64,000 nucleotides of DNA from Amphiscolops sp. MND2022 (GCA_964187785.1 OZ076409.1:34102001-34166000), one strand, 5' to 3'; positions 18,103-58,017 are shown, numbered from the stretch's first letter. Program-made: numbers and translations. The notes: generated by a model from the letters alone, not told the origin.

Positions 18103-19504
18103 AACTTCTCCGAAAAAAGACACACCGAAAAAACCTGCCAAAAAGACTGCATTGATTGGTGGAAAATCAAATGGAGGCAAAAGCAGTGCATCTACAACGA
18201 GCAACGGAACTGCTGACTCTGATAGGTCGGCTTCTACTACAGGGGCAAGCTCCAAAAGTGTAAAGTCTGGACTATCTTCGTCTTCTACCAAACTCTCGAG
18301 TAAAAGCTCTGCTTCTAAACACTTTATTGAACGCAATAAAGAACTGGCTGCAGACGCTGCAAGTATGATACCAATGACCCCTGAGGAAAGGTCAAGGTTG
18401 GATTCCTTACTCGAAAATGTTGACCTCATGGATGATGATGAAGGTCTTGATGAAGATGCTAACGATGCTGCTTCAAATGGATCCCCTACAGGTAGTGCTC
18501 CTTTTGTGGGCGGCAACAGTCGGAAACATCTAGGCGGCGGAAAACAGAAACGAAGGTATCACGCGATTAGTGCGCAGGAGGAAAAACTACTGACGGAGAT
18601 CGATGACAGGCTCAGTGGATATTTGACTTTTGAACAGTTTAAACAAATATGTTGGCAAGATGCATCTGAGAGTGATACCATGTCTGCAACCTCGTCATCT
18701 GCCTTGGAAAAGGGAGATGATAAAATAAGGGAAACAAGAGAAGATAGAATCAGTCAAATCAGGTTGGCCCATATCGATGAAAAACTCAGAAGACTCAAAG
18801 TTGCTGGCGAGTCTCAGAAAGATGGAAGTTTTTCAGAAGATGGGACTAATGTTCCCGCTATAAGTCAGTTCCAAATGCAACAATTGCTCAATGAGGTAGG
18901 AACGCAATATGCTAATGATACTGCCCAAGGAATAATGTATCCCAAACCCAACAAAGAAGAACTCAGAACCCTTCTTAACAGAGAAACTAATTTGGAAGAT
19001 GAAGTGAGAGACTGGAATTACATAGAATACGATAGAAGCAAAAGCTTTTCAGAAGAGCTCAGAGAGCTTACAAAGTTTGCAGATGACATTGAGACTTACC
19101 TCGCCATTGAGTATAACATCGAGGAACTTTCAGATGACAATAATCCTGGTACCAGTGCTTCTCACATCGCAAAAACAGAGGGTGCGGTTACATCCATTGT
19201 TGGGTCTAGAAATTACACCGTGATAGAAATTTCCAGAGAAATGGAGTATTTGGATAAAAGGGCCGATATGTTGATGCAAAGGCTGCATAATTTACCCGAG
19301 ATCCGAGATGTTAATATTGATGATGTTCCTAGTCATCAGGATATTGTGAGGAGTGTTACGTTTGAGGATATCGAGCAAAATGAAAGACTATATGAGTTAG
19401 ACAGAGACATGGACAATCTGAGGAAAAAGTTGGAGTCCCTGGAACAGTTGAGGAAAGATACAATGTCGAATATTTCTGTTGACACTTCAACTAACGACAC
19501 TTGA
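18103..19504 (+). CDS. FSIP1: Fibrous sheath-interacting protein 1-like, terminal coding exon (5' exons not identified)
   Basis: Acceptor TTTCAG at 18102 opens the frame. The motifs FIERNKELA..MTPEERSRLDSLL, LLTEIDDRL and GDDKIRETREDR..RLAHIDEKLRRLK resemble remembered FSIP1 blocks (FIKRNIELA..EKKRLVELL, LAEIDIKL, RLREIDEKLK) in the same order. Confidence 0.7.
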
Positions 19505-30699: not shown

Positions 30700-31760
30700 T
30701 ACCCATAAAATGCAATGATCTAAAAACTTGCTGCAATGTGCTTTGAGGTGGTCTAGGTTTTGAATTTACTGATACTTTGCCCTATTACTCCTCAGCTTTC
30801 ACGAACAAAAAATGTATCTTTGAACATTACTAGGTTTTCATTATTTTTCGAACACTAAAGTTTCCTAATTTCCGGAAATTGTTTCCGAAAATTTGTTCAT
30901 TTCATGCACGTTTTCCCTAACAGCAATTGTAGCTGGAATCGTTCCGCTTTTTGGGCCAGTGGTAGGGTGTGAGGTGTATGAGTTCGAATTCTCTGAACAA
31001 AAAACGTTCCATAATATCAAATTAAACAATAATATATCATTCCTTTTTACATCATGCCACAATGATTTCGAAACGCAAAGTAGCATCTAAATATTAAAGT
31101 TGAAGTGATTTCAAGAACTTTTCTTAATTCGTAAAAAAGTACCTTCTTTTTGGATCGTTATTTCAATTTTCACAACTACCTGAAAAAGGTCGCCGGCAGT
31201 AAGAAATCAGAACTGATTTGTAAATATTAGCAAAAATTGGATCACCAATGACTCAAAATTGCCTTCATGAAGTCTAATCTTGCCTTGTCTGCTTCTCCAT
31301 TTCTCGATGTGCCGCAAAACTGAAAACGGCTAAATTTTATCAGCAGCTGATGTTGATTTTATTAATCTCGAAACGTGATCAACAAGGAATGTCAATTCTG
31401 AAACGAACCCTAATTTTAGAATCATAGAATGCTTGCAGTCAAATTATTACGAACTCTTGGAAGTTCCATTACATAGTTCAAGCTTATACGTTTCTCAGAA
31501 ATAGGGTTCTAATTTTTCTACAAGTTTCTTAGTTGTTGCCTAAGTTAAAACCACCTGATCAACTCCATTGAAGTTCATCTCTTTATCTGAAAACAAATTT
31601 CAAACAGAATCGCTTTTATTGGTGTTTTTGTTATTTTTAAATTGCCCAATATTAATAACCACTGGGAACATATCAGCTTCCAACTTTTTCCTAACTTTTC
31701 AAAGTTGAACGTCCGACTCAAATCGCAGGTATTCATAGGCAGAAAACAAGTGACCACGAG

Positions 31761-34269
31761 TGTTACGACATGCCAACGAGTCGTTCTGAGTTGAACTTAT
31801 TCTCACTGACTTCGTAGGGGTATAGAAGTTTCTTGTTTCCTCTTCTACTTCTTCCTCGGTATTTTCCCTAATGGTTCCCCTTGTTTCAGGTTTCAAGAGT
31901 TTCAACATTTCCTTCTGAGATTCGATAAGAAGATTCTTAATCTCTGATGTTATTTCCTCTTTCAAGGAAGCCCTTAAACTTTCTAAGAGGCTGTTTTCAA
32001 TCCGGGGGGATTTTGAGTTAGAGGGCCCCGCTACCTCATCGTCCTGGTTTAAGGAACAAGGATTTCCTACTACTATGGGTGAAATTAAGCCTTCACTTAC
32101 GTTCTCATTGGTGCTTTGCTGATCATTCCTTCTTTTCTGGCTTCTTGTTGTTGACATTTTGTGGAAAAATTTGATCTTGAAGAATTGATTTCTTTCAGAT
32201 ATATTTTCTAACAAGATAGAACAAGGCAAGAGTTTGATGAAATTGAAAATTCAACTGAATTGTGCAATCACAAAAGACTGAGTCCCTCAGTTAGCTAAAA
32301 TCATCGTATATATACCCTCCTAGCATCATTTGATCACGAGTTAAGTCCTAATTTCCTTCGAATAATTAGTCATTTCCTGTATTTTCGGTGCAAAAATCAT
32401 TTTGTTCCCAATTTCACGTCGACATTCCGTCAAATTTTAAGACACGGCAAATCTAATCTAGCATTAGTCATCAACCGTAATCATATTATTTCAGCTCGGC
32501 GTCCTTTTGTTTCCTCCCAAGCAGGAAGTAGATATTACTTCAGTCTGTCAAACCGGAAATATTTCCGTTTTGCTGCTTTGGTTCGTAAGAAACTGACGCT
32601 GAGGTGACGCCGGCATGAACAACTAATGCCTGAATTTTGATATTTCGCTCGGAAAAATGCTATGACTAATGTTTTCAGCTCTGTAATTTCCAATGATGCT
32701 AGGAAGGAAATGAAATTAAGATTAAAGAATTAGCAACAACCTCAAATTAGTTTCAAATTAAATAATTAATGGTTAACAAAATAAAACAACGACACATTGA
32801 CGCTTGATGGCTTGATAGACTAAATTGTCTAATTCAGACTTCTGCCCCAATTTAATAATATTTCAATCCCAAATGCTGACTGATATTATTTTAGCATTCA
32901 TCCGATGAATATACATAACACTCTGTCAACAGGTTTTAACTTGCACGTAAAATAATATTTCGAACAAAAGTTTGACGACGTGAGAACGGCACTTTGTGGA
33001 TTTTCTGAACAAGCAAGAGTTCAAAACCTTTTATCATCAGATCTTAAACATTACAAAAATGTACAATAGCAACACAAACATTTATTCTGAGTTTATGCAC
33101 ATTGGGGTCAAAGCAATGACCATCCTGATTAGGGGACGACGACGTACCGGCGTCCAATTAAACACAACAAGGTAATAGCACACGCTTTATGTAGTACAAA
33201 ATACAAACGTATGAAAATATATTTCCAATACGAAAATACTATCGATTTACTTTCGTCATGCCCATAAACTGTGACTTTCACCTACATTATACGGGGATTT
33301 CCATTTCAACTTAAGTTTTAGAGCAGAATTAATCCGGCAAAGGAAATATTTGACGAAAACGTGGCGTAGGTCTTCAAATTCCCTACTAATTGTCTTGTTA
33401 AATCACCAAACACTTTAAACGTATTCCTAGCACTAATTAGTTTGATTGATATTCATCATAATTTTTGGATGGACTAAAACAACTTGTCTTGATGGAATTT
33501 GGACGTACCGTGGACGTACGTATTAGTATTAGGCCTGGTCCAGCATAGTGGACGTAACGCGGACGTAAATTTGAAGTAAGAATTAGTCCGCGCCTAGAAG
33601 ACAACACCGTGACGTCACTATGGCGGAAAATTGGAATGATTTTAAGTAGTGTCACTAATATAGGCGGTAAATTGGAATGGTTCTCTAGTGAGAGCGGACG
33701 GAACGGTGACGTCACACTATATACTTTCAAGTGTGCTTCTTACCGACATCTATTATACATGTATTCTTTATTTTGTTTACTTAGCGCAGTGCCAACATCC
33801 TAATCCGCACTAATTGCTGTTCAAAGTGCAATTAAGCTGCCTTTCTTAGAAAAGGAGTGAATATCTCAGTGTGTCATCTCAATGTAGTTTCTATTTTAGA
33901 TTCAGATAATGTCCTTTTTCCAATGGTGATTTTGGATATATTTTCATTTAAATCGGTTTATGGTCTTTATTTCACGGCGTGTTTTAATTTAGTTTTCAGG
34001 TGGCGAATGTTTCTATTTTGGCGCACTAAGGACGTCCTACCGGATGTGCGTGAAAACATCTTATTTCATTTTAGTTTCTGTTCTCATTTTGTTGAAATTT
34101 TACGTAAGTTGGGCGTTCATTTTCGTATTCTTAGTCACAGTTTATTTCAAAGATAAGGTTTTAGAGTTACCAGTTAAGTAAGATTTGGGGAATCTCAGGT
34201 TTCCTCCGTGTCCTCTCCCGATCTTCAGTCGTCTACAACCACAAGCCAGACCGGGAGCGGGCTGTGACA
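31761..34269 (-). repeat. 3' LTR of Gypsy element 2 (2509 bp)
   Basis: Direct repeat of 45535-48049; roughly 17 substitutions/indels counted by eye (~99% identity). Confidence 0.95.
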
Positions 34270-34864
34270 GGGCCGCTCTTGTATGAAGATTGACGCTGCC
34301 CGGGGCTCTGAGTTGTGAAGCAATTGACGAAGTAGTGGCGACTGGTTGTACTCTCCTCTCTAAATCGTTCAAAGGGCTTGCCTGCAAGAAATTTATCATC
34401 TTTGGTGTTCCCGGCGGGGTGTTGAAGTAAGAAGAGGCGTCCTCCTGGTGCACTTTTTCGAGGTATTCTGCTATTCTACTACTCGTTGTCGACTCTTTTT
34501 CGCCTGCCGAGGGTTCAACAACAAATATGTCAGATGACAAGCTTTCGTCAGGGCTCTCTGGAGAGTCGGCCATTACTCCTTCTTCGGGACTTTCCGACTG
34601 TGGGTATTGACCCGATTCCACCGTTTCAAAGCTCGTGCTGAGTTTCATTTTTTTGCATTCAGCTTCCAGAGAGTCCAGAGAGAGGTCGAGGAATTCTTCC
34701 TCATCTGCAGTAGCTTCCGCAGACGAATTCAGTATTTCGACAATTATTCTGGGATATTCTTTGTTGACTCTAGGTAGCGGGGTAGAAGCCCTCGTGATCT
34801 CACCCTCTTCTTCACTTCACGACGAGATGTCGATCAATTCGTATATATCTAGTAGATTATTCAT
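34142..34864 (-). pseudogene. Accessory acidic Ser/Glu-rich ORF of element 2 (element sense strand), one premature stop
   Basis: ATG at 34864 (MNNLLDIYELIDISS*SEEEGEI...) is in frame with the 168-aa ORF starting at 34648. The frame reads across the internal/LTR junction into the 3' LTR. Confidence 0.5.
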
Positions 34865-35084
34865 CTTCTTTGTGAGGTTTCTTTCTTTTTGCAGCTGTCG
34901 TTCGTATTTAATTGTTCCACAATGAATTTAGGATTAATTAGGATTAAGGAGAATATTGGGATAAATCCCTCCATTCTGATTGGTTAAACAATCATTTTAA
35001 TCCTTTTTAATCTTCAGGTGTTGACGCTGAGTCAACGTCGTTTTTTATTGGCTGCAAATTGAATTAATCCGCTTAGCCAAGTTT

Positions 35085-35330
35085 GTCAACGTTATGCTGA
35101 CGTCATTTTCGCTAGCTTAGCTAACTTTTTGTTTTGTCACCGTTATGATGACGTCATTGTAGGTCATGGGATTAATTTCTCAACACTCATAACCCTTTTG
35201 TCGACGTTATGCCGACGCCATTTTCGTCGATATTTCAATCAACTTTTAGTGCCGACGTTATGCCGGCGTCAATTTCGTTGGTGATTAACCAACTTTTAGG
35301 TTTTGTCACCGTTATGATGACGTCAATTTT
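35085..35330. promoter_or_regulatory. Array of five ~50-60-bp-spaced CGTTATG...GACGTCA (CRE-like) motifs between divergent ORFs
   Basis: Copies near 35090, 35140, 35204, 35256 and 35310; three contain the perfect palindrome TGACGTCA. Promoter function is inferred from position. Confidence 0.5.
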
Positions 35331-35361
35331 GGGTTTGTTTTCAGATTGCCTCTTTGGAAAA

Positions 35362-38300
35362 ATGACTTCTCCCCATGTGGACCTTGGCGCGCAGAGTGGC
35401 AACGAAACTCAGTATGTGTTTTCAGAGGGGGACGTACATCCGAGTGATGCTGACAATGTTGGTCTAGCAGCAGAAGGTGAGTTCATCATTCCCTGATCCA
35501 TTAAGCTTTCGTGAATAATAGTTTGCATAGTTAGGCCTTTCCATGTTTGTATCTTCACAGCTTAGATTTTCTGACGCGTCGATACTGGGAATGTGTGTTC
35601 TTTTTAGTTCCTGTTACGACTTCTGTCGTTGCTGCGTCGACCGTCCCTCCTGTAAATGTTTCTGTTGCGAGTACTGGAGTTTCTGCGTCGCCTATAGTCT
35701 CTGTTGTGATCCCTGAAGCTTCCGCTGTCGTCCCTGTTCCGCCTGTTCCTTCTGCTGAGTCTTCTGGTGCAGTTGCTGCTTCAATTGTTCCGTTGGCTGG
35801 TGCTTCTCCCCCATTGCCTCAGGAGGATTCAGATGTGCCTCTTTCGCAGTTTCTTGCTAGGTCAAACATCCCTAGTGCAATTTCTCCTCGCGTAGGTGAG
35901 GACGTCTGCCCCCCGCTTGAAAACGAGAAAACCGGATCTCAGAAGATTGTCCGTGGAAAAGGAGCTGATGTTGCCGCTAAGACGTCTCCGTGTTTCTCGC
36001 GGTATTTGCCGAATTTTGCCGAAACCTTCTCCCGGCCTTCCACTCAGGGTGAGTCTTCATTCAATTGCTGTTTTTTCTTTTCTGCTGTTTTTTTTGCGTT
36101 TGTTGATTTTGCTATGATGGTCTGTGGTTTTGATAAGTATCTGCAATTTCGTTATTTAGTTGTCATGATTGATTGTTCCTTGTATTTTGCAGTTGCTCCG
36201 TCCAAACCTGCTGTGTCTTCTGGGAAGCGTCGGCGCACCGTCACTTTGGCTTCTGTTGCCCAGACGCAGACGTTTCAGATCGAGAGCAGCGGAGGTGAGG
36301 ATTCTCAGGCGGGGCTTGCCGCTTATACTACGCAACAAGCTGCTTTGTTTGGTGAGGCTGTTGCTTCTGAGCTGGAGACTCGAACCGTGGAGCCTTTCGT
36401 TGCTAGTTAGTAATTTTTCCTTCTTTCTTTTCAGTTGTCCGTTTCTTTGTGTGGGGGTGGTCATGTATCTGGGGTGGGTGCATCACTGATGCCGTTTTCC
36501 TTAGTCTATAGAATTTCGTTTTGTTATAGAATTTGAAGAGTTGGTGACGCGGGTGGAGACCAGTCTTGAGAGTGCTAGTCCGTCCAGGCGGCGCAATCGT
36601 CCTCCAAGTCTTCGTACTCGGCTACGACGCAGTATGGTTAAAGATCACCCTGTATTTGAGTTGTTTGTGAGCGGCTCTAGTTCTGGTGTTGAGACAGCTT
36701 TCTTCTGCACCATCTGCGAGCGGGACGTCTCCATAGCGACGAAAGGTGTTCGTGAGATCAGTCGGCACTTCGCAAGCGATAAACATTGGTTGCTCGATGT
36801 TACTTATCGTGTGCATCAGGGCTTGCAGGTTTACAACAAGCTGCTGGATCCTATGGAGTTGAGCGAATCACAGACGCGGGACTACCTGGCCCTTCCATTC
36901 AAAGAGAGACCTGAAGGCTTCAGTTTCCCTGAAGATCTGTTGCCTGCTTGCACCCGGATAGATTCGAGTGTGCCACACATGACTATGATAAACTGTCTGG
37001 TCGAACTTCTTCGCAGTGGAGGCGACTATCTGCTGTTGCGGAAATTGTGGGGACATTTCCGGGCTACTCTTGGAACAGATAGTCCGTTATACAATTTAGC
37101 ATGGAGCCGTGGAGAGTCCCTGGTGAGTTGTGTTATCTTTGTTATTGGTACGTGTTGGGTGTTCACACTTGCTCATCGTTTTTTTGTTATACTTTTGGTG
37201 GTCGAGTTTGTGACGGCTTGATATAAGGAGTGTTATTGTGTTTTAGTCATTGCTGTGCCAAGGTTTGTTTCCTCGAGTGCTACGTGTGTTGATCGCTCGG
37301 ATCAATGACTTCAAAAGCTACAGCATTGTGTTTCTTGATCGAGGAGGAGGAAAGCAGTGTCTTGTGCGGACATGGGACAAAAATGTCTTGCTGGAAGTGT
37401 GCGTCGACGTCCAGACGGCGGGTCAACACGTTCCCCTCGCTGAGTTGAGCTCCTTGTCTTGCATCCTTGGGAGTGTTCCTGGTGGTCAGTTGCCCTTGTC
37501 CGTCGAGGGTGCGAGTCCGTCTCTGTTGCGAGTGTTGAGTGATGCTCGTGAGGATGGCCACCAGTTCATCTTGAGCCGCAATTTCACTGAGGAGGTTTTT
37601 CTCAGCTGTTTTCGACAGGCTCATCAATAGGTGCTGGGCATGATGGAGGTAACTGCTATGGTCGATTACCTGATGCTGCGACTGAAGGGGGCTCTGCAGG
37701 AGCCTTGGCTTGAAGATACTCGTGTGCTCCGTCGCTGTGTTGTCGCTGGCCGTGTTGCCTTTTGTGATCTGCGCGATGTTGCTGCCGAGTTGATCCCTGT
37801 GTGGAACTCTGTGAGGGAGTTCATCCGCTATACTGGACCGCGACATATCAAGGTTGAAACCGATATGGTTAGTATTGTTGGTTCAAGTTTTTACTTGTGT
37901 GATGTTGTTCTTCGTAAGTATGGGTAGGGTAGTTTATGGGATTAGTTGGTATATTAGTATGTTTCTGTTGTTCTGTTTCAGATGCGGGGAACTGACAGTC
38001 AAATCTATTGTGACAACACGAATCGGTTGCGTCTCGGGCTTCTCGTGCACGTGCTTGATCTCTGTAAGTGTACGTCGTCTTGTTGTCGCATCGGCTATAG
38101 TTAGGTAGGTATTGCAAAAGTTTGTTGTTTAGATCGTTGTACCTTCAAGAAGCAGTTGTCTGGTCGTGAGGACTATGGCTTCCATTGTTACATGGAGATA
38201 TGCCAATTTGTGTACTGCCTGCTTTCCCGTACACGTCAGATTTCTAGTTTGCCTGAGCTTCACGACTGGGAAGCCTATATGGATGCCTCCAAGATCGAAG

Positions 38301-39324
38301 CTTTTAAGAAGATCGACACTGCCGACTTTTTGTTGAGTCACGATTTCGGCGAAGAGTTGCAGCGAGGGAAGACTGGCGAGATGCAGGAGTTTCGAAATCG
38401 TTGTCGAGAATTCATGGATCGTTTAGTGGACGTACTTTTAGAATCAAATCTTGTGTCATCTGATTTCTTGCAAGGTGCTTATTCATTCTGTCCAGAGCTT
38501 CTATTAGAGGGGGATGACCGTTACAGCTTCTGTTCAGCAAGTTAGTGCGAGTGCTGGAACGTAGTGGTGCTTTAAGTAGTGAGGAGGCTAAATCTGGATC
38601 TGAGGAATTCGTGACCTTCGTTGTGGACGCTCGACGTCGTCATGCTGAATCTGAGAGGAGTGCTGAGTCTATTGTGGATGTGATGAGCTACTTCCTGGCC
38701 GATTATAGTTTCCTGGCTCGAAAGGACTTGTGTAAGATCCTGAAGTTGTGTTGTTTGGTCATGCGGCGTCCCGCTACGGATTATCCTGAGGTGAATATCT
38801 CATTGAAAGACTGTTCGGTACCTGCCTCCATGATTTCATCTTGTCTCCGAGGTGTGCAAAGTTACGTGCGGAACCCGGATTTTAAATTGGGTGTTTTCTT
38901 TAGTCAACACACTATGGATTGTGTGCGTGATGCTATTTCTGGGGCTCGGGAGTTCATGTCCTCTTCCAATTTTGATCCGTGGAATCGTTTGTGTGTGGGT
39001 GACCGTGCTGAGTTCATCCAACGTTACAGTGAATTGTTCAAGGCGCACATTGATCGTCGGAAAGAGGAATCATATCAGCGATTCCGGGCAGCCAATCAGC
39101 GCGTGCATCGTGGTGCTGTTGATGTCAATGTGTTCTCGTCGTCGTCTTGTGGTCGTGGAGCAGGTGGGGTCTCAGCTCCCTCTATGAGTTCTCCTTCGAA
39201 GACGTCTTCTAAGCGTCCCCGTGCACAGACGTCCAAGGATGGTGGTAGTAGTGTATCGTCATCGAAGAGTGCAAAGAAAACATCAAAGAAACAGTCGAGT
39301 AGCGCCACTAGTTCCAAGAAATGA
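35362..39324 (+). pseudogene. Antisense, spliced cargo gene of element 2: BED-type zinc finger / hAT-transposase-like protein (two lesions)
   Basis: Exons 35362-35476, 35608-36048, 36193-36405, 36530-37122, 37247-37867, 37982-38063, 38133-39324. All six introns are GT(R/T)AGT...YAG and phase-compatible. Contains FFCTICERDVSIATKGVREISRHFASDKH (C-x2-C...H-x5-H). In-frame TAG at 37628-37630 and a frameshift near 38525. Confidence 0.75.
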
Positions 39325-39564: not shown

Positions 39565-42500
39565 TTACATAGTCGTAGTCAGAGCGTCAAGTCGTCTGAA
39601 GTCAGGATTCGTGTTAGGTTTAGGGTAAGGTCGTAAGTTGTATTTTGCTATTTTTCTCGGATTATATCCAATAGTTGTAGGCGGTGAACTGGGGGGAATA
39701 GGTGGACTTTCAATGAGTGGGGGCGTCGTATGTATGGGTTATCCCCCACGTCTGTAGTAAGATTTGAAAAGTCCGGAGATGGCGGCGCTTTGTCGTCCGT
39801 AGTTTCAGGTTCCTTGTCCAGTATTTGTTGCGTCGCCGTTTCGTCCTGCGTGTTCGCTACCTCTTGTGTGACTGGTTGTTGATGGTTGTTTTCGTTTTCT
39901 CGCGACTCGTGCTCGTCGATCTGTTTCCCGAAATCCATTTCCCATGAGACTGCGTACCACTCATTGTGTGAAATTTTGACATCTGGATCGGGAAGGTAAT
40001 TGTCGGCTCGTACTGTGACGTCAGGCAATCGTTGTTCTGGCACGTAAGGTCGTATGCGAATTCTGTGTAGTGTTTGTGTATATCTTGTGCCAAGTTTGCG
40101 TATTGTGTAGTTATTATTGGAAAGCACTTTGATCACTATGTACGGGCCAGTCCATATGCAGTCTTGGAACGCAAACTTCGTCGACTGGTTGTCGGCTTTC
40201 GGATTGAGTATGTAACAATAATCGTTGATCTTCAGTGGAGCTGCAGACGCTTTGCGGTCGTAATATTTTTTATATTTGAGGTAGGATAGCATTATATTGT
40301 CCTTCGCTGTCGCTCGTACCTCGTCTATTTGTTTTTGTATTTGCTCTGCTATGTCCGAGTTGGGCGTTGTTTTCCACTTTGGCTTGATCCCCAATTTTAG
40401 GTCGAGGACATTGTAGGGTATTCGTCCGTGGAATACTGTAGATGGTTCACAGCCCAGAGTCTCGTGGTATGTTGTATTGTAGTTCATTACAGCTATTTGG
40501 ACATACTTGTGCCACATTGAACGTCGTTCACCCGTCGAAATTTTTAGTGCGGTTTTGATTGACGCGTGTGTTCTTTCTAAAATTTCGATCGTCTGTGCAT
40601 GTTTTGTAGACGCATGGCTGATTTGAATCTCGAGTATTTGGGCTATTTCTGTGACGACTTCTGATCGAAATTGTGAGCCCTTGTCTGATAGGATTAGTGT
40701 TGGCAAGTATGCATGTCTTGTCATAACGTCGACAATGCATCGTCCGATTGTTTTCGCTGTGACATTCTGTGTTGGATATGCAAATAGGTAACGTGAAAAT
40801 ACGTCGATCATCGTAACGATGTTCTGGTATCCTGCAGAGCTTGGCAAATTTGGTAGTATGTCAATTTCAAGAATGTCCTCCGGACCAAGGACGTGTTCCG
40901 TATTGTTGATCATTTTCGGTCTGATTTGGCTGTTGTTGATTCGTTTGTATTTGATGCAGTCTTCGCATTGCATTACCCACTGTCTGATTCTTTTTGCTAG
41001 GCCGGGGTAATAGTACTTTGATCGGCATTCTTGAATCATTTTTGTAATCCCCGGGTGTTTTCCCATTTGTCCATGTATTGCCTTCAAGAGTTCTGTAACC
41101 AAGTGTTCGAGAATTAATATTTGGTGGTGGGTAACTTGTCCACATTCGCCGTAGTACTTTCGCATTAATACTCCATCTTTGACAATTAGTCTGCTTTCGT
41201 GGACTAGGAGGCGTTTGGCTGTCGGATCAGTTTGTAATAGGTGTTTGTCATAATCTTCAGAAATCAGTTTCTTTTTGATTGCTTTGAAAACTAGGTTTGA
41301 ATCTTGTTCGACTCTGATGCGAGCATCCTCTTTTATTGCTCCAAAGGTATAAGATGCTTTATTTATTGGAATTGGGGTGGTTTCTTTGATGGCTAGTTTA
41401 ATTTGGGACGTCTCCTCGTCGCGCGCATTTTGTCTAGCTTGTTCCTTCTGCAATAGGATTTCTTCTTCTGTTTCAATTGTTTCATCCGGAAGGAAGAAAA
41501 GCTGTTCCTCATCCGCGACGTCCGTAGATTGGAGATTCACTTGGATGGGCCTGATTGTAATATCCTCTCTTATTTTCAATTCAACTCGTTCTTTGGGGGT
41601 AAGTTCAATGCGTGATAAGAAATCAGCTGCAGTGTTTTGCGTACCAGCGACGTGCATTATGTGGAAGTTGAATTGTAGCACATAGTCACACGCGTTCCAC
41701 AGCGTAGGCGGTATGGCTTTTGTTTGGAAGAAGCGCGTGACTGACCTGTTATCGGTCATTACGAGTGTTGGTAGCGTCGCTTCCCACAATATATGGCTGT
41801 ATTCTAGAAATGCATGGTAAATTGCTAGGAATTCTTTGCAGTAAATAGACATTTTTAGTTGAGCTGGGGAAAATACTTTCGATCCGAATGCGACCGGCGC
41901 AAATGTCTTCTTTTTTGAATTGAGTTTTTTGTCGTTGTTTTCCTCAATCATTAGTGCATAGCCGGAGGCTCGGAAACTGGCGTCCGTCATCAGGACGTAC
42001 TGTCGTCCTGTGATTGGTTGTTTGAGTGCCAAACAGCAAGCTTGCGCCAGTGCTGCGTTGATAGCTTTGTAATGGTCAAGTAATTCTTCTGTGATTTTGA
42101 TTTGTTTATCTGCTTTCAACAATTCATAGAATCCGAGTAATTTTTCAGATAATCGCGGGATGTAACTGCGATAATAATTGACAAAACCAATGTATCTTTG
42201 TACCTGCTTTTTTGATTTTGGAAATCGTACATTTGCCAGAAATTTTTGTATTTTATGGTCTTGGGGGGCAATTCCTTGCGGAGTGATTGTTCTTCCAAGA
42301 AATTCAACCTCAGTCACCCCGAAATGGCATTTTTCTATGGTTAGTTTAAGCCCCGCTTGTCTGATGCATTCGAAAACGGCTTTGATGTTACGTATCAGTT
42401 GCGTCACTAAATTCGCTGCGATCCCGATATCATCCACATATTGTGCGCACTGGTCGGCTTTGATCACTTTGTCTAAGTATTCTCTCATGAAACTTGAAAA

Positions 42501-44495
42501 TGCCGACAGAGCCCTGCTCAGTCATTGTGCTAAGCGTCTGTAGGCAAACGTCCTGCTTGCGAAGTTAAACGCCAGCATTTCAATGGATCTTTGATCTGCC
42601 ATTTGTAAGCAGTGGTATGCTTGAGAGCAGTCTAATTTGCAAAATAGCTTTTTACCAGCTAGGTGTTGAGCCGCATCTGACAAGGTGCTAACTGGATGGT
42701 TATTGTTGATGTAGTCATCTGAGATTAGTGCGTTTATTTTTCGCAGGTCGACAAGTAGACGCAATTTGCCATTTGGTTTCCTCTGTGCGAAAATTGGGCT
42801 TGCATACTTTGAAAATGGTAGGGTCGTTATTATGCCGTACCTGTGCATTAGCGCCAATTCGACTGTTAGGTCTTCTTTCAAATTGATTGGTACTGGCAAA
42901 CTTTGCGTGTAAATCGGACGCTCGTCTTTCGGAGTTAATTTGACTTTGAAGTTATTGTTGATTCCAATGTCAAGGCGATGACGCGCAAAAATGTCGTTGT
43001 ATTCGATTATTGTTTGTTCAAGTTGCTTCCTGTCATTGCCTTCGGTTTCGGAGCCTTCCCACTGGAACATGTCAAGGAATTTTTGTCTTGATTCTGGGTC
43101 TTTGGTTGGATCTAAGTTTTCCTTTTGGATGAGTTCACGGATTTCCTTCAAGATCCGACGTTGGATTGGCGTATGTTCTTCTTCGTTCCCTGGATTCTCG
43201 GGTGTGGGGAACCAGAGGTTTTCATCGCTTTGTTCATGTTCATTTGATTTTATAAGTTCGCTGATGTACATGTGTGTGTCATCAGGATCTTCTAACAATT
43301 TGAGTGCGGCGGCGTCAACTGGTCGTATTTGTTTCGTGTCCTCAGGTTTGAGGATTTGTAGTTCTGCCAGCTTTGTATGATTCTTTATTGTATGTGGGAA
43401 ATCCGTTAGGTTGGCGATTCTGATGTTGAGCCTTTTGTTATGGGCTGTCGCCAGAGCTGGTGCAACAATGATTGTTGCTGTTTCATCAAATTGTGGTAGT
43501 GGTTGTACCGCACCAGTGACGTCATGCATGTTTGTGGTTATGACTATTGCGTTTACTGTTGTTGTCTGTTGAGGCGGCAGTGTCTGATGTCCTTCTGCCA
43601 TTATTTGAAGCGATTTTGGGTTGCATTTTTTCATTTCGTCTGTCATGGCTAACGTCATTTCGACGTGCGGGAAATTGATCGTCCCGTTGGCGGTGTCGAT
43701 CACTGCTTGGTGATTTCTCATGAAGTTTAATCCTATGATAGGGAATGATGTTCTCGATAAGATGACGAAGGTATCTGTGAAAGTGTATGTCCCGATATTA
43801 AACTGAATATCCGCAGTGGCTATTGGTTGTTCTAGTTGTGCGTTTGCGCATTCAATTTTGAAAGGAGGTTGTGGGTATTCTTTTATGACACAACTATCGG
43901 TATTCATCTTGATGGCATTATAGTCTGACCAGGACATAGCATTGATGAACGCACCTGAGTCGACAAGTCCGTCCATGGTGATTTCTCCGAATTCGAGTGG
44001 TAAATAGAGCATTCTTCTCTTTTTCTTTAGGACTATAGTCGAGTGGAGTGGTAAGTACGTCTCTCCATCTTTTTCAGTAACAAACTCTTTGATAGAGTTA
44101 AGAGATGTGGGGAAATCCTCTGGGAAGATAGGTACTTGGGTGGAGCCGTGGGTATCTTCCTTTGTCTGTGTTGACGATGGTTGGTCGTCGAGGGCGTTTT
44201 CGGTTTGTTCTGTTTGGGTTATTGTGGATTGTGTTGTATTGGTGAGGGGTGGCTGGGTGAGAAGATTTGGGTGTTGTTTGTGGTCGTCTCCATGATCCTC
44301 ATCTTGTGTCAGTTCCTTTTCGGTTTGTATGAGGGGTCTTCGTATGGAAGCGAGTGCCTGACGTCTCAGCCAGTCCTCTGTTGGAGTTCCATCGCATTCT
44401 ATTGTTGTTTCGTTGGTGTATGTAGTAGGGGGATCATTTGGTGAATACGCGCTCGCGTCTACTGTTTCCCCGAAGCGCAGGCGCGGCGTATCTAG
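39565..44495 (-). pseudogene. pol of element 2 (PR, dUTPase-like spacer, RT, RNase H, integrase)
   Basis: The -1 frame is open from 44495 (LDTPRLRFGE...) into LVDSGA protease, YVDD RT, TDAS RNase H, HHCC and DDE integrase, WTGPY. One nonsense TGA at 42522-42524 (LAQ*LSR), and a probable 1-bp deletion near 39720 that displaces the KYNLRP tail ending at 39565. Confidence 0.9.
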
Positions 44496-44501
44496 TTTTT
44501 T
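44445..44501 (-). promoter_or_regulatory. -1 programmed ribosomal frameshift signal
   Basis: Slippery heptamer A AAA AAC directly before the gag TAG, followed by a GC-rich stem (ATACGC CGCGCCTGC...GTAGACGCG..GCGTAT). The -1 frame is the pol frame. Confidence 0.85.
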
Positions 44502-45931
44502 GATTCAATGACAGAGTTAGCTGTCGTTGGTTGGACGAGAACGTCCCTTTTTGATTCCGGGTTATTGTGACGCTTAGGTCGTGGATCGTTGGCAGAGTTG
44601 GCTCCGTTCCAACAATCTTCCGTTTTGTGAGGTTTGCCGCATGTGTCGCATTTAAGCGATTTGCCTGCACTAGAGTTGGTTTGGCCATTGTTCTTCCTGA
44701 TCTGCATCCATTTGTCTCTCTTCATTTTCCTACATTCTGCTTTGTAGTGTCCAAATTTGTTGCAGAAGAAGCAATATCCCTTTTTGACATTTTGCGTCGT
44801 GCTGTCGACTTGTTTGGGTTCAGTTTTTGTTGGGGCCGGTTCTACTTTATTTAGTGGTACCAGTGTTACTTCATCTGGCGCCCCAAGGCCGTTAAGCCTC
44901 ATTTCTCTTTCCAAGTGTAGCACAATGTCATTATACGGCTTGTCTTCGAGATACGCCCTGTTTAGTATCTTTTTTACATGATCTGGCATTTTTGCGTATA
45001 TTGCCTTGTCAATGAATTGTTGGGCTTCAGATCCGAAGGCTTCTTTGGCGGTTTTTTGAAGTACATCCAGAAATTCGTGGAGTTTCTGGTTCGAGGGATC
45101 GAATTTGAGCGCATCCCATTCGCATCTGGCCTTTGCCATGGACAAATAATCTCCGAAACGTCGTTTGAAAATCGTCATGATTTCATCAAGGGAATCCTTT
45201 TTCGTGTCTTCGATATTACAAAATGCTTGTAAAGCATCTCCTCTGAGGAGGGAGTGGAAGTAGTTTATTTTTTGAATTTCCGTAAGGTGTGGGTACATTT
45301 TGATATTATTGCGAAAAAGGTCTTCGAAAAGCTCGAATTTTTCCGACTTCCCATCGAAGGTCGGGAGTGACGTCGTGAGTGCTTTTGGCATGGGCAGAAT
45401 AGTGCCATCATTTTTATCTGTGGCAAATAAAGTCCTTGCCGCTACTGGACGTTCTTTTGACGGCGGTTGGCTCTGAGACCTGGCTTTTGTTCTTTTTGGC
45501 TGGTTTGTGGAATCGGTTAGGACTCCTGTCACCATGTTACGACATGCCAACGAGTCGTTTTGAGTTGAACTTATTCTCACTGACTTCGTAGGGGTATAGA
45601 AGTTTCTTGTTTCCTCTTCTACTTCTTCCTCGGTATTTTCCCTAATGATTCCCCTTGTTTCAGGTTTCAAGAGTTTCAACATTTCCTTCTGAGATTCGAT
45701 AAGAAGATTCTTAATCTCTGATGTTATTTCTTCTTTCAAGGAAGCCCTTAAACTTTCTAAGAGGCTGTTTTCAATCCGGGGGGATTTTGAGTTAGAGGGC
45801 CCCGCTACCTCATCGTCCTGGTTTAAGGAACAAGGATTTCCTACTACTATGGGTGAAATTAAGCCTTCACTTACGTTCTCATTGGTGCTTTGCTGATCAT
45901 TCCTTCTTTTCTGGCTTCTTGTTGTTGACAT
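44492..45931 (-). CDS. gag of element 2
   Basis: ATG at 45931 (inside the 5' LTR), capsid motif LPTFDGKSEKFELFE, zinc knuckles CFFCNKFGHYKAEC and CDTCGKPHKTEDC. Confidence 0.9.
   Translation of the reverse strand: MSTTRSQKRRNDQQSTNENVSEGLISPIVVGNPCSLNQDDEVAGPSNSKSPRIENSLLESLRASLKEEITSEIKNLLIESQKEMLKLLKPETRGIIRENTEEEVEEETRNFYTPTKSVRISSTQNDSLACRNMVTGVLTDSTNQPKRTKARSQSQPPSKERPVAARTLFATDKNDGTILPMPKALTTSLPTFDGKSEKFELFEDLFRNNIKMYPHLTEIQKINYFHSLLRGDALQAFCNIEDTKKDSLDEIMTIFKRRFGDYLSMAKARCEWDALKFDPSNQKLHEFLDVLQKTAKEAFGSEAQQFIDKAIYAKMPDHVKKILNRAYLEDKPYNDIVLHLEREMRLNGLGAPDEVTLVPLNKVEPAPTKTEPKQVDSTTQNVKKGYCFFCNKFGHYKAECRKMKRDKWMQIRKNNGQTNSSAGKSLKCDTCGKPHKTEDCWNGANSANDPRPKRHNNPESKRDVLVQPTTANSVIESKN
45517..45534 (-). 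promoter_or_regulatory. Primer-binding site (probably tRNA-Leu)
   Basis: TGGTGACAGGAGT immediately follows the 5' LTR; its complement ACTCCTGTCACCA resembles tRNA-Leu 3' ends (tRNA identity is inferred). Confidence 0.7.
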
Positions 45932-48049
45932 TTTGTAGAAAAATTTGATCTTGAAGAATTGATTTCTTTCAGATATATTTTCTAACAAGATAGAACAAGG
46001 CAAGAGTTTGATGAAATTGAAAATTCAACTGAATTGTGCAATCACAAAAGACTGAGTCCCTCAGTTAGCTAAAATCATCGTATATATACCCTCCTAGCAT
46101 CATTTGATCACGAGTTAAGTCCTAATTTCCTTCGAATAATTAGTCATTTCCTGTATTTTCGGTGCAAAAATCATTTTGTTCCCAATTTCACGTCGACATT
46201 CCGTCAAATTTTAAGACACGGCTAATCTAATCTAGCATTAGTCATCAACCGTAATCATATTATTTCAGCTCGGCGTCCTTTTGTTTCCTCCCAAGCAGGA
46301 AGTAGATATTACTTCAGTCTGTCAAACCGGAAATATTTCCCTGTTTTGCTGCTTTGGTTCGTAAGAAACTGACGCTGAGGTGACGCCGGCATGAACAACT
46401 AATGCCTGAATTTTGATATTTCGCTCGGAAAAATGCTATGACTAATGTTTTCAGCTCTGTAATTTCCAATGATGCTAGGAAGGAAATGAAATTAAGATTA
46501 AAGAATTAGCAACAACCTCAAATTAGTTTCAAATTAAATAATTAATGGTTAACAAAATAAAACAACGACACATTGACGCTTGATGGCTTGATAGACTAAA
46601 TTGTCTAATTCAGACTTCTGCCCCAATTTAATAACATTTCAATCACAAATGCTGACTGATATTATTTTAGCATTCATCCGATGAATATACATAACACTCT
46701 TTCAACAGATTTTAACTTGCACGTAAAATAATATTTCGAACAAAAGTTTGACGACGTGAGAACGGCACTTTGTGGATTTTCTGAACAAGCAAGAGTTCAA
46801 AACCTTTTATCATCAGATCTTAAACATTACAAAAATGTACAATAGCAACACAAACAAACATTTATTCTGAGTTTATGCACATTGGGGTCAAAGCAATGAC
46901 CATCCTGATTAGGGGACGACGACGTACCGGCGTCCAATTAAACACAACAAGGTAATAGCACACGCTTTATGTAGTACAAAATACAAACGTATGAAAATAT
47001 ATTTCCAATACGAAAATACTATCGATTTACTTTCGTCATGCCCATAAACTGTGACTTTCACCTACATTATACGGGATTTCCATTTCAACTTAAGTTTTAG
47101 AGCAGAATTAATCCGGCAAAGGAAATATTTGACGAAAACGTGGCGTAGGTCTTCAAATTCCCTACTAATTGTCTTGTTAAATCACCAAACACTTTAAACG
47201 TATTCCTAGCACTAATTAGTTTGATTGATATTCATCATAATTTTTGGATGGACTAAAACAACTTGTCTTGATGGAATTTGGACGTACCGTGGACGTACGT
47301 ATTAGTATTAGGCCTGGTCCAGCATAGTGGACGTAACGCGGACGTAAATTTGAAGTAAGAATTAGTCCGCGCCTAGAAGACAACACCGTGACGTCACTAT
47401 GGCGGAAAATTGGAATGATTTTAAGTAGTGTCACTAATATAGGCGGTAAATTGGAATGGTTCTCTAGTGAGAGCGGACGGAACGGTGACGTCACACTATA
47501 TACTTTCAAGTCTGCTTCTTACCGACATCTATTATACATGTATTCTTTATTTTGTTTACTTAGCGCAGTGCCAACATCCTAATCCGCACTAATTGCTGTT
47601 CAAAGTGCAATTAAGCTGCCTTTCTTAGAAAAGGAGTGAATATCTCAGTGTGTCATCTCAATGTAGTTTCTATTTTAGATTCAGATAATGTCCTTTTTCC
47701 AATGGTGATTTTGGATATATTTTCATTTAAATCGGTTTATGGTCTTTATTTCACGACGTGTTTTAATTTAGTTTTCAGGTGGCGAATGTTTCTATTTTGG
47801 CGCACTAAGGACGTCCTACCGGATGTGCGTGAAAACATCTTATTTCATTTTAGTTTCTGTTCTCATTTTGTTGAAATTTTACGTAAGTTGGGCGTTCATT
47901 TTCGTATTCTTAGTCACAGTTTATTTCAAAGATAAGGTTTTAGAGTTACCAGTTAAAGTAAGATTTGGGGAATCTCAGGTTTCCTCCGTGTCCTCTCCCG
48001 ATCTTCAGTCGTCTACAACCACAAGCCAGACCGGGAGCGAGCTGTGACA
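45535..48049 (-). repeat. 5' LTR of Gypsy element 2 (2515 bp)
   Basis: Direct repeat of 31761-34269, bounded by the PBS and the TSD. Confidence 0.95.
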
Positions 48050-48530
48050 ACGAGTGGATATAATGTTCGTCTTTTGGACCGCTCAATACAATCAACACAG
48101 TTAGAAAGATTTTTTACGACAAGCACTGAGTTTCGGACATGCTTGCAAATATGAATTTGATTGAACTCTTTGTGATAAAAATTAGATAGTTTCGTTACTG
48201 CCACCTGTCACAAAAAGACGTTTTTCAGCATTCTTTTTTTTTAATATTTCTGCTTTAACAGGAATATTATTGTAACCTCAAACTTACTACTTTTTTTCAG
48301 AACAATTTTTGTCGTGATACTGGATAATTCAGATATTTTGTTCGGCAGTGACTGTAAGCGTGGGAAAGCTGCCGACAACAATTCAATTCTAGTGCGATGG
48401 AACGAGCGAGTGGTAATTATCCAATCGTATGCTGACGTCATTGAGATGAAGCGAGCGAATGTTCGTATTTGTGCTTTCGTTGCCCCGAGTTATTGAGATG
48501 AAGCGAATGAGTGTTAATTATTCGTTCGTT

Positions 48531-50030: not shown

Positions 50031-51400
50031 CGAAGCTAGGGAAACTCGTCGAAAAGCAACTCGCCGAAAACACAGACAGGAAAAACAAGACAGGAAAACT
50101 CGTCGAATACAAAAGTAAACTAACCTCAGTCAAGCAGATAATTGATTCAGCCATTGATAAAATAAAATATTCAAAGTAAGCGTCTTAGAGGACGCACATG
50201 TGAACTAATTACTTTTGATTGACAGCGACGCTGATGTTCGAACAAGCGGCACTATTTTCAAACAAAAATTAGGAAACAACTTTAAACACCAGTCAACAAC
50301 TTTTTTTCAACTGCATTGAATTTCAACGTACACGTGTAAGAAAAACATACAACCACAGCGTGCGTGCGTAAACCAGATGTGTCAATCCATATGCTCCTTG
50401 TGCGTTGAGTTTTCGATAAATAGTGTTCCTAAATATTGAAAAATGAATGAACTTGGACAAGTGGAAATGTCTCCGCCGCTAATGTGTGATGTCCGAGTTC
50501 GAGCCTAGTCTTTGGTAATTTTTCATTGAAATTACGGAAATTGATAAGCCCGATTCCCTAAAATTCCCAATTCCGGAATCTTGGGGTGTCGGGTTGAGAC
50601 GAGGAGGGAATACGAGGCAGGTTCTCGGTCAAATCCGGAAATATTAAAGTATCTCGCTCGTATTTTTGGGGTGCCGCAATAGTATCAACTCGTTTGTTGC
50701 GGAGAGATCTTTTCAGGGAAGAAATCATTGGAAGTTGCACTTTAGCACTGTCCGGTAGCTGCAGAGAAACAGAGCCGATTATGCACTGCGGCATCATATC
50801 AGAGGTCGTTGTTAGCTCGTCCATTTTTGTGAGTGCTTTCAGGACATCAATTCTTGCAGCATCTGGGGCATGGTTGTGGCTGTTGGTGTCTTTCACGACG
50901 GTATCGCACTGCACATGGATTCTTGATGAGCAAGTGCCTCTGTTTTCAGATCTACAATACGTCGTACCTTGTGATTCTGTATCATTTAGATAGACAAATT
51001 GATTGAATATTAGTTTTTTTACCTTTGCGAGTTCACGTGTTCAATGCTCATGTTGAATGATTTTGATTGATAATAATAAAATTGAATGATAGCAATGTAA
51101 GCAATGTTAGTGATTCGGATTTTTGAAACTTATATTGTTGGCAAATTTATATCTTCTTTCAGTTAGCACCTTTATCTTTTCAATTCGGAGTTATATTTAA
51201 CTGGAGTCAAATAATCGGCAGCAATTAGTCAGTTTACCTGAGACGCGTTTGGATGTGGTATTTGTGCTTAATTGGCGTTGTTTAATTATTCGGCGAGTTT
51301 GCATTTGATTTTCGACGAGTTAATTTTCGACGAGTTTTCCTACCTTTCTTTTCGGCTAGTTGTTTTCGGCGAGTTGTTTTCGACGAGTTTTCCCCATACC
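50031..51400 (-). mobile_element. Mutator-like (MULE) element, internally deleted
   Basis: TIRs built of AACTCG(T/C)CGAAAA repeats at both ends. TSD TTCGGACC (50023-50030, 51401-51408). Contains a FLYWCH remnant. Confidence 0.8.
50558..51051 (-). pseudogene. FLYWCH zinc-finger N-terminus of a MULE transposase
   Basis: KLIFNQFVY...TTYCRSENRGTCSSRIH...HNHAPD matches the FLYWCH layout. Frameshift near the start; DDE core absent. Confidence 0.7.
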
Positions 51401-53327: not shown

Positions 53328-54306
53328 AAGACCGTTTTTGTCAAGCCTTTGATAGGTTGAACCTTATTGTTTTAAATTGGTCCTTTTGAAACGGTTGAGA
53401 TGTTGAAATGGAAAATCTCAGGAGCAACCGGCATCCCGATTCATGAGCAACGTCTGTTTCTGTCAGGAACATTGCTCCAAGATGGCAATCTGCTAATTTG
53501 GCACTGTATTCAGCATCAAAATGTTTTGAATCTGACGCGCACAATTCCAGGCGGGCGGATGTTGCATGTTAAGAATTTGATGATTGATAAATATATAAGT
53601 TTGGAGGTGGGAAATTACGAAACTATTGGGAATGTCAAAGCCAAAATTCAAAATTTTACTGGTTACAATACATTTGACCAGAGGATAGCTTTCAGTGGCA
53701 AAGCACTCGATGACAATGACACATTGCAACAATGTGGAATTTTGAATGAAAATCAGCCTCTATGTTTAATTCTGAAAAATAACAATGAAAGTGGCTGATG
53801 AAGATTTGGATCCGCAATACAATTTCTGCTATCCAGAAAAGGACTATCTTAATTTTAGTCGCGGCGGAAAACCGTTCAAAAGACCTGTTTCATGGCAAAA
53901 GTTTGCAATCAAAGTAAAAGGTAAGTATGAGAATGACATTTGGTTGGGGACCATGGCATCAACGAATCGTACTTTCAGTGTTTATGGCGAGTGGCCCGTT
54001 TCTTATCATGGAACAAGCCTCGAAGCTGCTGATCATATTGCGAGCAGAGGATTCGAGTTGAGAAAAAGCAGAAGAGAAGCGTATGGGAAAGGAATCTATT
54101 CCAGCCCGGACCCAGAAGTGGCGGAAGGATATGCTAAGAAGTTTATGCACGAAGGTAAAGAATATAAACTCATGTTCATGAACAGAGTGAACATGAACAA
54201 CACTAACGAGGTGCTTACGGAATTCGGAATGTATTATATTACTTCCAATGAAAATTCCATCCGGCCATACGCTATATTGATTAAACAAGTGAACACAAAC
54301 CAATGA
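53328..54306 (+). pseudogene. Tandem ubiquitin-like domains fused to a PARP-like ADP-ribosyltransferase domain (NEURL4/GIG2-like type), disrupted
   Basis: Ubl1 KTVFVKPLIG*TLLF*IGPFETVEMLK..GIPIHEQRL..IPGG; Ubl2 ISLEV..ETIGNVKAKIQ..DQRIAFSGKALDD; ART RGG..RP.W.KFAIKV, WPVSYHGT, YGKGIYSSP, RVN, IRPYAILIK. Stops at 53358 and 53373, and a frame change at 53785-53798. Confidence 0.8.
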
Positions 54307-55818: not shown

Positions 55819-57646
55819 TGGCGCAGTCAGCCAATTTTTAAATAAATTGAAACCTTCTTAACAAACCGAAACTATGGCAGAAAAAATATCGTAAAAAACT
55901 TCGAAACTAAAAACACAGGCGGAAATCCGGTATTTACACCGAGACAATGGCTTGAAAGATTCAAACAATTTACAAAACAGGAACACAAAATTGATATTAC
56001 ACCCTTACTCAAAGGAGAAGAAATAACTGATTCCCGTTGGGCCGCGAAAGAACAAGCAACAAGAAGATTTCATCTGGAGAGTGGGACCGGAAGCACTCTT
56101 CCAAATAACCCGAGCAGAATACAAGACAGACCCGGGCAGCATAAAAATAAAAAATCGAATCCGGTTATATACCGCATACTATTTACCGAAACGAAACACT
56201 TACCACAACCGAAGAGATTTTTTCTGGGCGAAACAATCAGGAGAAGAAACACCGGAGAAATTTTGGAGACGACTGATTGAAATTGAAAAAGAATGCAACC
56301 TCGGCACTATCTCAGCCGAAGAATTACAAATCTCAAAATATATGACTGCAATAACCAACAAGAAAATAGGGGACAAAATATTGAAAGAAAAAAACGCTGG
56401 AAATGAAGAAAATAATTGATTTAATCAAGCAGAACACATACGAAAAGAAAAATAAAAATATTACAATCCCGGAATCATCTCATCAAAAAAACAATTGACA
56501 AAAGAAGAGCGGATACAGAGAATGGAAAGATTCGGAACAAAACCGAAAAAGAAACAATTCGGAAACAGACCATGCAGGTTTTGCAACGCACCAAATTGGT
56601 CCCCTATACATAAATGTCCGGCAGTAGAAGCAAACTGTAACAAATGCGGAAAGAAAGGCCATTTCGCAAAAGCATGTAGACAAAGACTGTAGAATAACCG
56701 AACAGTGAAAAGACTACCCGAAGACGAAACTCAACAATCGAACGAATCAACTAGCGAATCAGAAGAAAGCAAACACCACATCAAAGAAGTAGGAACAATC
56801 GAAGAAAAGAACAAACACTACACGGCAACAATTAGAAAAAACGGAGTGAAGAAAGAATTTATCATAGACACCGGATCACCAAAAACAATAGTGCCACCCG
56901 ACGAAAAATTTATGAACACACCGAAATTCAGAAAAACCAAACCGATACCAAGATGTAAATAAAAACGAAGTAAAATTCAGGGAGAAAGTTCCGGTGAATA
57001 TCGAGTACGAAAATAACAAACAGAAAATGGAAATTCTGATAACTGAAAGAACAGATATAACGCCGTTACTCGGGATGGACTGGATGAAAACATTCAAACT
57101 AACTATCGGAAGAATGCAATTGGCCGAGATCAACCAATCAGAAGAGGAGAAAATCATTAATAGATTTCCGGTTTCGTTCGAAAACAATGAAACGATAAAA
57201 GACACCGAATTAAAAACACAACTAAAACCCGGACTTTTCCGGTAAAACACTTTACCCGGTAAAACAATAGGCCCGACCGGTACCAATACACCTACAAGAA
57301 GATGTTGGAAGAGAATTAGAAAAAACTGATTAAATCCGGACCCTTAGAGAAATTTAAAGATGTCGACGAAGATTGTTTTGTATCACCGGTAGTAATCACA
57401 GTGAAAAGCGACAAATCACTGAAAATAACACTAGACTCCTGGAAGCTGAATGATAGTTGCATCAAAATGAGACCACATATGCCGAACATGGACGAACTCT
57501 TAAATCAGATTTCGGTAGAAATAACACGCTTCCGAACAATGCAACTATTCGTTTCCAAAATAGACGTAGATTAGGCATAGGGGCAAATGAAGTTATCCGA
57601 AGAAACTAGCCGACAATGCGTATTCACATTACCCGGAGAAAAATTT

Positions 57647-58017
57647 CATTACAACACACAACTTTCATGAGCGTGAAAAGCCTATTAAAAATCCTCGAAC
57701 GCCCCATGAGGGAATTTTCACTGGCCCCAGTGTATTACTTTTTGTATTAATATTACCTATTTGTATTTTTTTAAATTTCTGGAAGCTTAAGGTATTTTAA
57801 TAATTGGTAAAAACAGAGATTTTTGTATCTACTTTATCATTAAAACCTGATACGACTTATAGAGTTTTCTAATAAATGACCCCATTCTCAGGATTCATTA
57901 ACAACTGAAAATTGTATCAGTAATCCTTATACTTCAATGCATATTGGCTTATAAGGAAAACTTATGCATTTTAGACACGTATATTCACGCGTACTCTGAA
58001 AGTTTTGTCTTGTAATG
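57647..58017. mobile_element. MITE inserted in the RT of element 3
   Basis: Imperfect TIRs CATTACAACACACAACTTTCA / TGAAAGTTTTGTCTTGTAATG; splits the RT motif GEKF|SGYYRF. Confidence 0.75.

Follow-up and report, generated by a model that had tools for sequence, protein, structure and literature searches.

Antisense open reading frames (aORFs) between pol and the 3' long terminal repeat (LTR) have been described in maize Grande (gene23), rice RIRE2, Retand elements (TRP28, PF04195) and Botrytis Boty, nearly all of them from plants (PMC7264820, PMC11963269; papers are cited here and below for the passages covered). An upstream promoter and a nuclear product are described for Grande gene23, and the plant aORFs are reported to be without similarity to other transposons (PMC7264820). 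Where such genes come from and what they do is a long-standing puzzle: both points are called unknown, and a regulatory role is proposed (PMC7264820, PMC11963269). We analyzed a 64,000-nt stretch of Amphiscolops sp. MND2022 (GCA_964187785.1 OZ076409.1:34102001-34166000; hereafter the window), in which a 16.3-kb Gypsy retrotransposon on the minus strand carries a seven-exon gene on the plus strand, antisense to gag-pol and lying between pol and the 3' LTR. This gene, a second ORF and the non-coding block between them form a two-gene accessory cassette, with both ORFs under purifying selection.

In position, orientation, presence in most copies and gag-pol-like conservation, the gene is like the plant and fungal aORFs and agrees with the class named aORF-3R. 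It differs from those described in its six introns, its CCHH finger and its length of ~1,085 codons, as well as in having a divergent partner ORF and in the swapping of cassettes between elements; the word "intron" is absent from the Retand paper. No match to PF04195 was found in scans of the gene and its relatives among the families listed (25 of 36 in the 91-member scan). Captured, family-specific genes after pol are also known from animal LTR elements, namely the DEDDy and GDSL ORFs of bdelloid Vesta and Juno (PMC5408684) and, as an extra gene after pol, the env of Oikopleura Tor, expressed from an internal promoter (PMC4402516). These extra genes are env-like or enzymatic, and in the passages covered no antisense multi-intron gene or transposase origin is described for them. 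Titles, abstract openings and passages of the literature, including parts of PMC12477816 and PMC8220671, described no antisense gene with multiple introns or of transposase origin in an animal Gypsy element, with repeat databases, supplements and most subscription journals outside this scope. The cassette is conserved and undescribed within the literature covered, and may have been annotated before.

The Gypsy element and its antisense gene

The genome searched was a 1.07-Gb assembly with 13 chromosome-size contigs, and the window lies on one of these (C1). A Pfam scan of the element detected gag, protease, reverse transcriptase (RT), RNase H and integrase, arranged as in Gypsy elements. Its two LTRs (31761-34269 and 45535-48049) are 99.2% identical with TG..CA ends, and together with a short target duplication, a primer-binding site (PBS) and protease, RT, RNase H and integrase following gag they place it in Ty3/Gypsy. 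Copies elsewhere in the genome are assigned to groups A to E. The element and the cassette comprise the following features.

31756..31760, no strand: left 5-bp target-site duplication (right copy at 48050-48054)
31761..34269, minus: 3' LTR, 2.5 kb, TG..CA
34142..34864, minus (element sense): second accessory ORF; last codons in the LTR; premature stop at 34819 in the window copy
34930..35345, no strand: conserved non-coding block between the two divergent ORFs; putative divergent promoter
35362..35476, plus: exon 1, with ATG at 35362
35608..36048, plus: exon 2, low complexity, fast-evolving
36193..36405, plus: exon 3
36530..37122, plus: exon 4, containing the CCHH finger (36706-36786)
37247..37867, plus: exon 5, with an alpha/beta part by eye; premature stop at 37628-37630 in the window copy
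37982..38063, plus: exon 6
38133..39324, plus: exon 7, with the Ser/Lys tail at its end; frameshift between 38518 and 38545 in the window copy
39648..44504, minus: pol (protease, RT, RNase H, integrase); a stop near 42522 breaks the window copy
44492..45931, minus: gag; first ATG within the 5' LTR, frame continuing across the PBS
45520..45534, minus: PBS-like site with a TGG start, directly adjoining the 5' LTR; same site in the distant group C
45535..48049, minus: 5' LTR

The exons (35362-39324) sum to 3,257 nt, or ~1,085 codons, and are separated by six GT..AG introns of 69-144 nt in phases 1, 1, 1, 0, 0 and 1. The protein consists of a disordered N-terminus (exons 1-3, rich in S/A/V/P), an invariant CCHH finger (C-x2-C-x16-H-x5-H), a conserved core of ~650 aa and a basic tail (32% Ser, 14% Lys). 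The alpha/beta part of exon 5 would, as we take it from comparison by eye, be an RNase H-like core, and exon 7 was mostly helical in a crude propensity scan. The window copy is broken by the premature stop in exon 5 and the frameshift in exon 7, and its pol and second ORF are interrupted too. An earlier note on this DNA, made from the sequence alone, omitted this damage; its description of a plus-strand gene of ~1,080 codons with six introns inside the LTR pair and target duplication, having a low-complexity N-terminus, a C-x2-C...H-x5-H finger and a basic Ser/Lys tail, was borne out in all these respects.

Splice sites were compared in an alignment of the window with 38 other copies (L046 and L058 being left out of 40). 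GT/AG was kept at 300 of the 304 sites of introns 3-6 and at 69 of the 76 sites of intron 2. Intron 1 is the least secure junction, since its acceptor was found at the same column in only 16/38 copies; it is often shifted, with an in-frame AG within 40 nt in 21 of the 32 group-A copies. Exons 3-7 were all free of stops in 22/38 copies. In the 29 copies further from the window, identity to it was 46-55% in the bodies of introns 3-6 and 59-79% in the exons. In group C, introns 4-6 are absent and the gene has one exon of 870 aa, to which exons 4, 5 and 7 of the window align head to tail (E 1e-13 to 1e-33). Along the group-C profile, exon 4, exon 5 and both parts of exon 7 follow one another; the exon-4 match runs to position 211 and that of exon 5 begins at position 213. 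The exon joins are independently confirmed because group C reads them as a single exon. At the site of intron 4, a GTnAG donor was present in 17/17 copies located in groups A, B, D and E (four more were not located), and the site was read through in 12/12 group-C copies.

The predicted gene model is far beyond chance, given the splice sites kept across copies, and an artefact was rejected. Introns that lie antisense stay in the genomic RNA and persist through reverse transcription; they persist in this element because the RNA that is reverse transcribed is the other strand. Intron content also varies among the groups. In group D (L091-L102, ~4200-5400 in gene orientation), intron 3 is missing and intron 4 present, and there are additional short exons and a long intron rich in tandem repeats, a case of intron turnover inside a retroelement gene. 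When the integrase tree was rooted with an unrelated Gypsy, the root fell in group C on a very long branch and is unreliable.

As to the element itself, the first ~130 codons of the gag frame lie within the 5' LTR (45535-45931, minus; equivalent to 31761-32157 in the 3' LTR), and since it begins inside the LTR and crosses the PBS, both LTRs contain the gag start. In group-C elements gag similarity likewise extends into the LTR. The tract at 34270-34290 before the 3' LTR has no classic long polypurine run and is C-rich beside the LTR, also in group C. No tRNA was found within the window.

The accessory cassette across copies of the clade

Pol was located antisense directly behind the gene in 65 of 70 copies picked by the gene (37/40 close, 10/10 group-C and 18/20 further distant copies); of the five exceptions, one had a nested Gypsy insertion, two had internal deletions, one had a tandem rearrangement and one was a locus resembling group-D DNA. 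Among 14 copies picked by pol (RT), 13 carried the gene at the expected place and strand and the fourteenth had LTR sequence there. No empty-site element was found among these 14; for an 8-bp duplication there were no ends at which to place one, and no dedicated 8-mer search was made. Group-C copies had LTR pairs in 9/10 and clear 5-bp duplications in 4/10. Relatives only 25-35% identical occupy the same place in the element, and neither the position nor the strand of the gene changes between groups that share only 45-75% identity in pol. No terminal inverted repeats (TIRs) were found around the gene, the longest inverted match being 10 nt compared with 7-13 nt in 100 shuffles. The scored genome matches formed lists of at least 150, 51, 146 and 135 rows, with their overlap uncounted, and the 7,550-11,114 first-look candidates are not copy counts.

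Three loci stand out. L046 contains a nested insertion within this Gypsy family. L067 (G000:C3:87537436-87547435) is decayed, with an LTR, the accessory gene and part of an LTR and without gag-pol, and is most likely a deletion product. L110 has pieces of the gene and no pol within 10 kb, and resembles rearranged group-D element DNA.

The dN/dS of the accessory core was 0.05-0.12 (9/14 pairs with unsaturated dS), that of pol 0.02-0.11 and that of a reverse-complement control 1.0-2.2. Evolution is faster in exon 2 and in the tail. Purifying selection in a multi-copy element suggests that the protein benefits the lineages that transpose. In trees of 59 rows (12/70 loci, with hits short or missing, were dropped), each of the groups C, D and E formed one clade for both integrase and the accessory gene, with support of 98-100, indicating that the gene is as old as the clade. 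Given its context in 70 + 14 copies, the purifying selection, the broad co-divergence with integrase and the lack of TIRs, it is almost certainly an integral functional gene of this Gypsy clade and not a nested hAT insertion. On this side the earlier note holds: it had proposed an integral accessory gene, had found no TIRs around it and had pointed to antisense ORFs in plant Retand-type elements, which are documented (PMC7264820).

A representative protein search found 269 proteins, and the database relatives looked up (10/10) were unnamed ENA records. Because three of them match this genome at only 28-53%, the gene family probably exists in other species. No relatives were detected in metagenome or viral contigs, and a "longer" search for homologs of exon 4 was blank. 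The family is an unnamed one with hundreds of copies, measurable selection and intron gain or loss inside a retroelement.

Elements that share almost the same pol can carry very different versions of the gene. Copies with RT 96-99% identical had exon-4 products only 58-66% identical in 12/14 cases, in a sample biased to unseen versions. Among 31 group-A copies, accessory distances tracked those of RT and integrase weakly (rho 0.23-0.39), and distances in the promoter-like block tracked them strongly (rho 0.74-0.85). Judged from these sequence comparisons, elements with near-identical pol swap old, divergent versions (~60% identical) of the antisense gene. The exchange would occur by recombination during reverse transcription, with the conserved block and the end of pol as homology. 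Divergence faster than that of pol, combined with version swapping, fits host conflict better than a fixed partnership with integrase.

The block between the two ORFs contains two CCAAT boxes and three TGACGTCA palindromes (35098, 35149 and 35318). At least one TGACGTCA palindrome was present within the 10-kb stretch in 40/40 close copies, and the block is more conserved than the gene (median distance 0.09, compared with 0.25-0.29 for exons 4 and 7), consistent with a divergent promoter. The second ORF encodes ~232 aa in unbroken copies, and the product is acidic with a motif resembling a SUMO-interacting motif (SIM) at its N-terminus. A sense ORF of more than 200 aa was open in 29/40 copies, its median dN/dS was 0.17 (255 pairs), analogues were present in groups C, D and E, and no Pfam match was obtained. 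A SIM-like core with a Ser/acidic flank was found at the N-terminus in 51/69 copies on the sense strand and 2/69 on the control strand. It fits, as a pattern only, the SIM consensus of an hhXh/hXhh core with acidic or Ser flanks (PMC8616421).

Origin and role of the large protein

The closest candidates for a source are hAT transposases (Hermes, Tgf2, Ac), with which the protein shares an N-terminal Cx2CxnHx3-5H finger, a core within the 600-800 aa range and a basic C-terminal patch (PMC4890040). The finger ligands were conserved in 51/51, 59/60, 50/51 and 50/51 rows, and the finger fits the BED pattern, Cx2CxnHx3-5(H/C) (PMC4890040). The accessory core is of hAT size, and in an Atlas feature search with the whole core 6 of the 10 matches listed were hAT-type clusters (FAM200/ZBED5 RNase-like, DUF4371 and DUF659; scores 0.81-0.84), which serves as a lead only. 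Unlike a hAT element, the gene is without TIRs, a PF05699 match, a conserved DDE site, CxxH or a significant profile match, and it moves by retrotransposition within an LTR element. We consider derivation from a hAT transposase somewhat favored and do not file the gene as one.

Several results count against this origin and the role built on it. No hAT Pfam model was found among 91 members, and zf-BED matched one of them at E 0.013, under the cut-off. An Atlas search with the C-terminal half returned FAM98/RLL helical proteins and not hAT, PDB sequence searches gave chance hits only, and hhalign against the genome's own hATs gave probabilities <1%, no better than reversed controls. The helix/strand order and long helical region, which by eye we take to resemble hAT, were not borne out by the profile test. 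No statistical link to hAT was obtained, and the origin remains plausible. For the partner ORF, the SIM-like motif occurred in 0/12 group-C copies, and the pattern is degenerate and was composed after the motif had been seen. The 14 pol-picked copies were drawn from rows outside the earlier copy list, a choice that favors divergent accessory versions.

Further tests for hAT features were likewise blank. Pfam scans of the exons and relatives gave no informative family, and the only profile alignment between the accessory-gene alignment (A4) and A5 ran finger to finger (E 0.06). The earlier note's derivation from a hAT transposase was not established (hAT Pfam models in 0/91 members), and the C-terminal region that it likened to the hAT dimerization region had no match to PF05699, which did match three host hAT ORFs used as a positive control. 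Nor did the DDE residues, for which it had suggested a check, appear to be conserved: there was no conserved acid at the putative by-eye equivalents of the hAT triad. The CxxH that follows the second aspartate was not conserved either, with no Cys/His column conserved at ≥90% outside the finger. Beyond the finger, columns conserved at ≥90% are mostly W, L, F, G, S and R, with no D, E, C or H, although some acidic columns reach 70-98% D/E. A genome search for DUF4371 gave 0/7 candidates, and its control also failed to match although such a gene exists in the genome. The controls show low power and make the blank tests weak negatives: a true hAT C-terminal half of this genome found no Hermes chain in the PDB, and hAT subgroups aligned with one another at probabilities of 0.06-83%. 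An Ac-type profile does find Hermes.

We propose that the large protein would be nuclear, would bind DNA without catalysis and would most likely derive from a hAT transposase, with finger and scaffold retained and the DDE site lost. It would act in trans on its own element's DNA, either sustaining transcription or shielding the DNA from silencing, while the small ORF may recruit SUMO-dependent chromatin machinery through its SIM-like motif and the conserved block would drive both ORFs as a divergent promoter. To this overall explanation, a cassette with a nuclear, non-catalytic, hAT-derived regulator or protector of its own element, we assign a probability of about one half. The non-catalytic nature is very probable; a regulator or anti-silencer, as opposed to a targeting factor, is an evenly balanced call. 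A more elaborate version, which we offer tentatively, is that the clade domesticated a dead, intron-bearing hAT transposase together with a SUMO-binding partner and a divergent promoter as a sequence-specific anti-silencing or self-activation module, with versions swapped in an arms race with the host and helping a very high copy number. VANC proteins of plant DNA transposons are likewise element-encoded and fast-diverging, and are proposed to act on their own element's DNA. As anti-silencing proteins of Arabidopsis transposons (PMC12859917), they are a functional analogue only.

The strongest competitor leaves the function intact and changes the source: a lineage-restricted C2H2-finger protein of another fold, from a host gene or from a virus or transposon not yet known, could be an integral functional gene as well. 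The blank hAT tests, the unnamed database relatives (10/10) and the other helical families favored by the C-terminal-half Atlas search all suit this possibility, which we rank somewhat below a hAT source given the missed Hermes, the 0.06-83% spread among hAT subgroups, and the core length, finger-first layout and whole-core Atlas search that point to hAT. Rather than regulating its element, the same gene might serve integration as a cofactor, tethering the integrase complex at selected sites on chromatin or DNA, with its versions altering target preference. A predicted DNA-binding finger with a basic tail, presence in nearly all pol-bearing copies and version swaps on one pol backbone, which would diversify targeting, agree with that role; we think it unlikely, as the weak coupling to integrase distances (rho 0.31-0.39) speaks against a tight partnership and the product of a separate antisense transcript, outside the Gag-Pol polyprotein, would not be assured of packaging.

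A transposase or nuclease that remains active and cuts DNA on the element's behalf would explain the long conserved core, its strong purifying selection and the acidic columns at 70-98% D/E. It is very improbable, however: no conserved acid stands at the by-eye catalytic positions, no D, E, C or H occurs in ≥90% columns beyond the finger, TIRs are lacking as a substrate, and the element itself encodes an integrase and has a 5-bp duplication. Least credible is a plain nested hAT insertion that one family has carried along passively. Nested insertions are known in this family (L046) and L110 has gene pieces without pol within 10 kb, but L110 resembles rearranged group-D DNA, and we rejected this explanation, now largely refuted, on the lack of TIRs, the shared place and strand across groups with pol only 45-75% identical and the pol-like dN/dS. 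An env-like gene was rejected on its wrong strand (no membrane-spanning prediction was made).

If the fold is that of hAT, a transposase would have been co-opted by another transposon class and not by the host, and such an origin would contrast with the reported lack of similarity between plant aORFs and transposons (PMC7264820). The natural version swaps on one pol backbone amount to a built-in experiment relating gene version to expression or target choice. The gene also matters for annotation because spliced genes of this kind resemble host genes.

Other features of the window

A second, unrelated Gypsy element, with 2,773 aa in one uninterrupted frame, lies at 1210-9531 (plus). Its integrase core is followed by ~900 aa; the last 443 aa have no Pfam match, and the C-terminal end is by eye presumably macro-domain-like. 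The remaining features are listed below.

14429-14968: UDP-glycosyltransferase exon
18095-19504: FSIP1-family ORF, which would suit an animal genome
24680-25192: DDE_3 transposase fragment
50558-51040: FLYWCH fragment
55846-60180: decayed LTR element with an integrase zinc-binding piece

At 53376-54306 (plus), two ubiquitin-like repeats precede a PARP/ADP-ribosyltransferase-like domain (PF00644, E 1e-7) that lies in a different frame.

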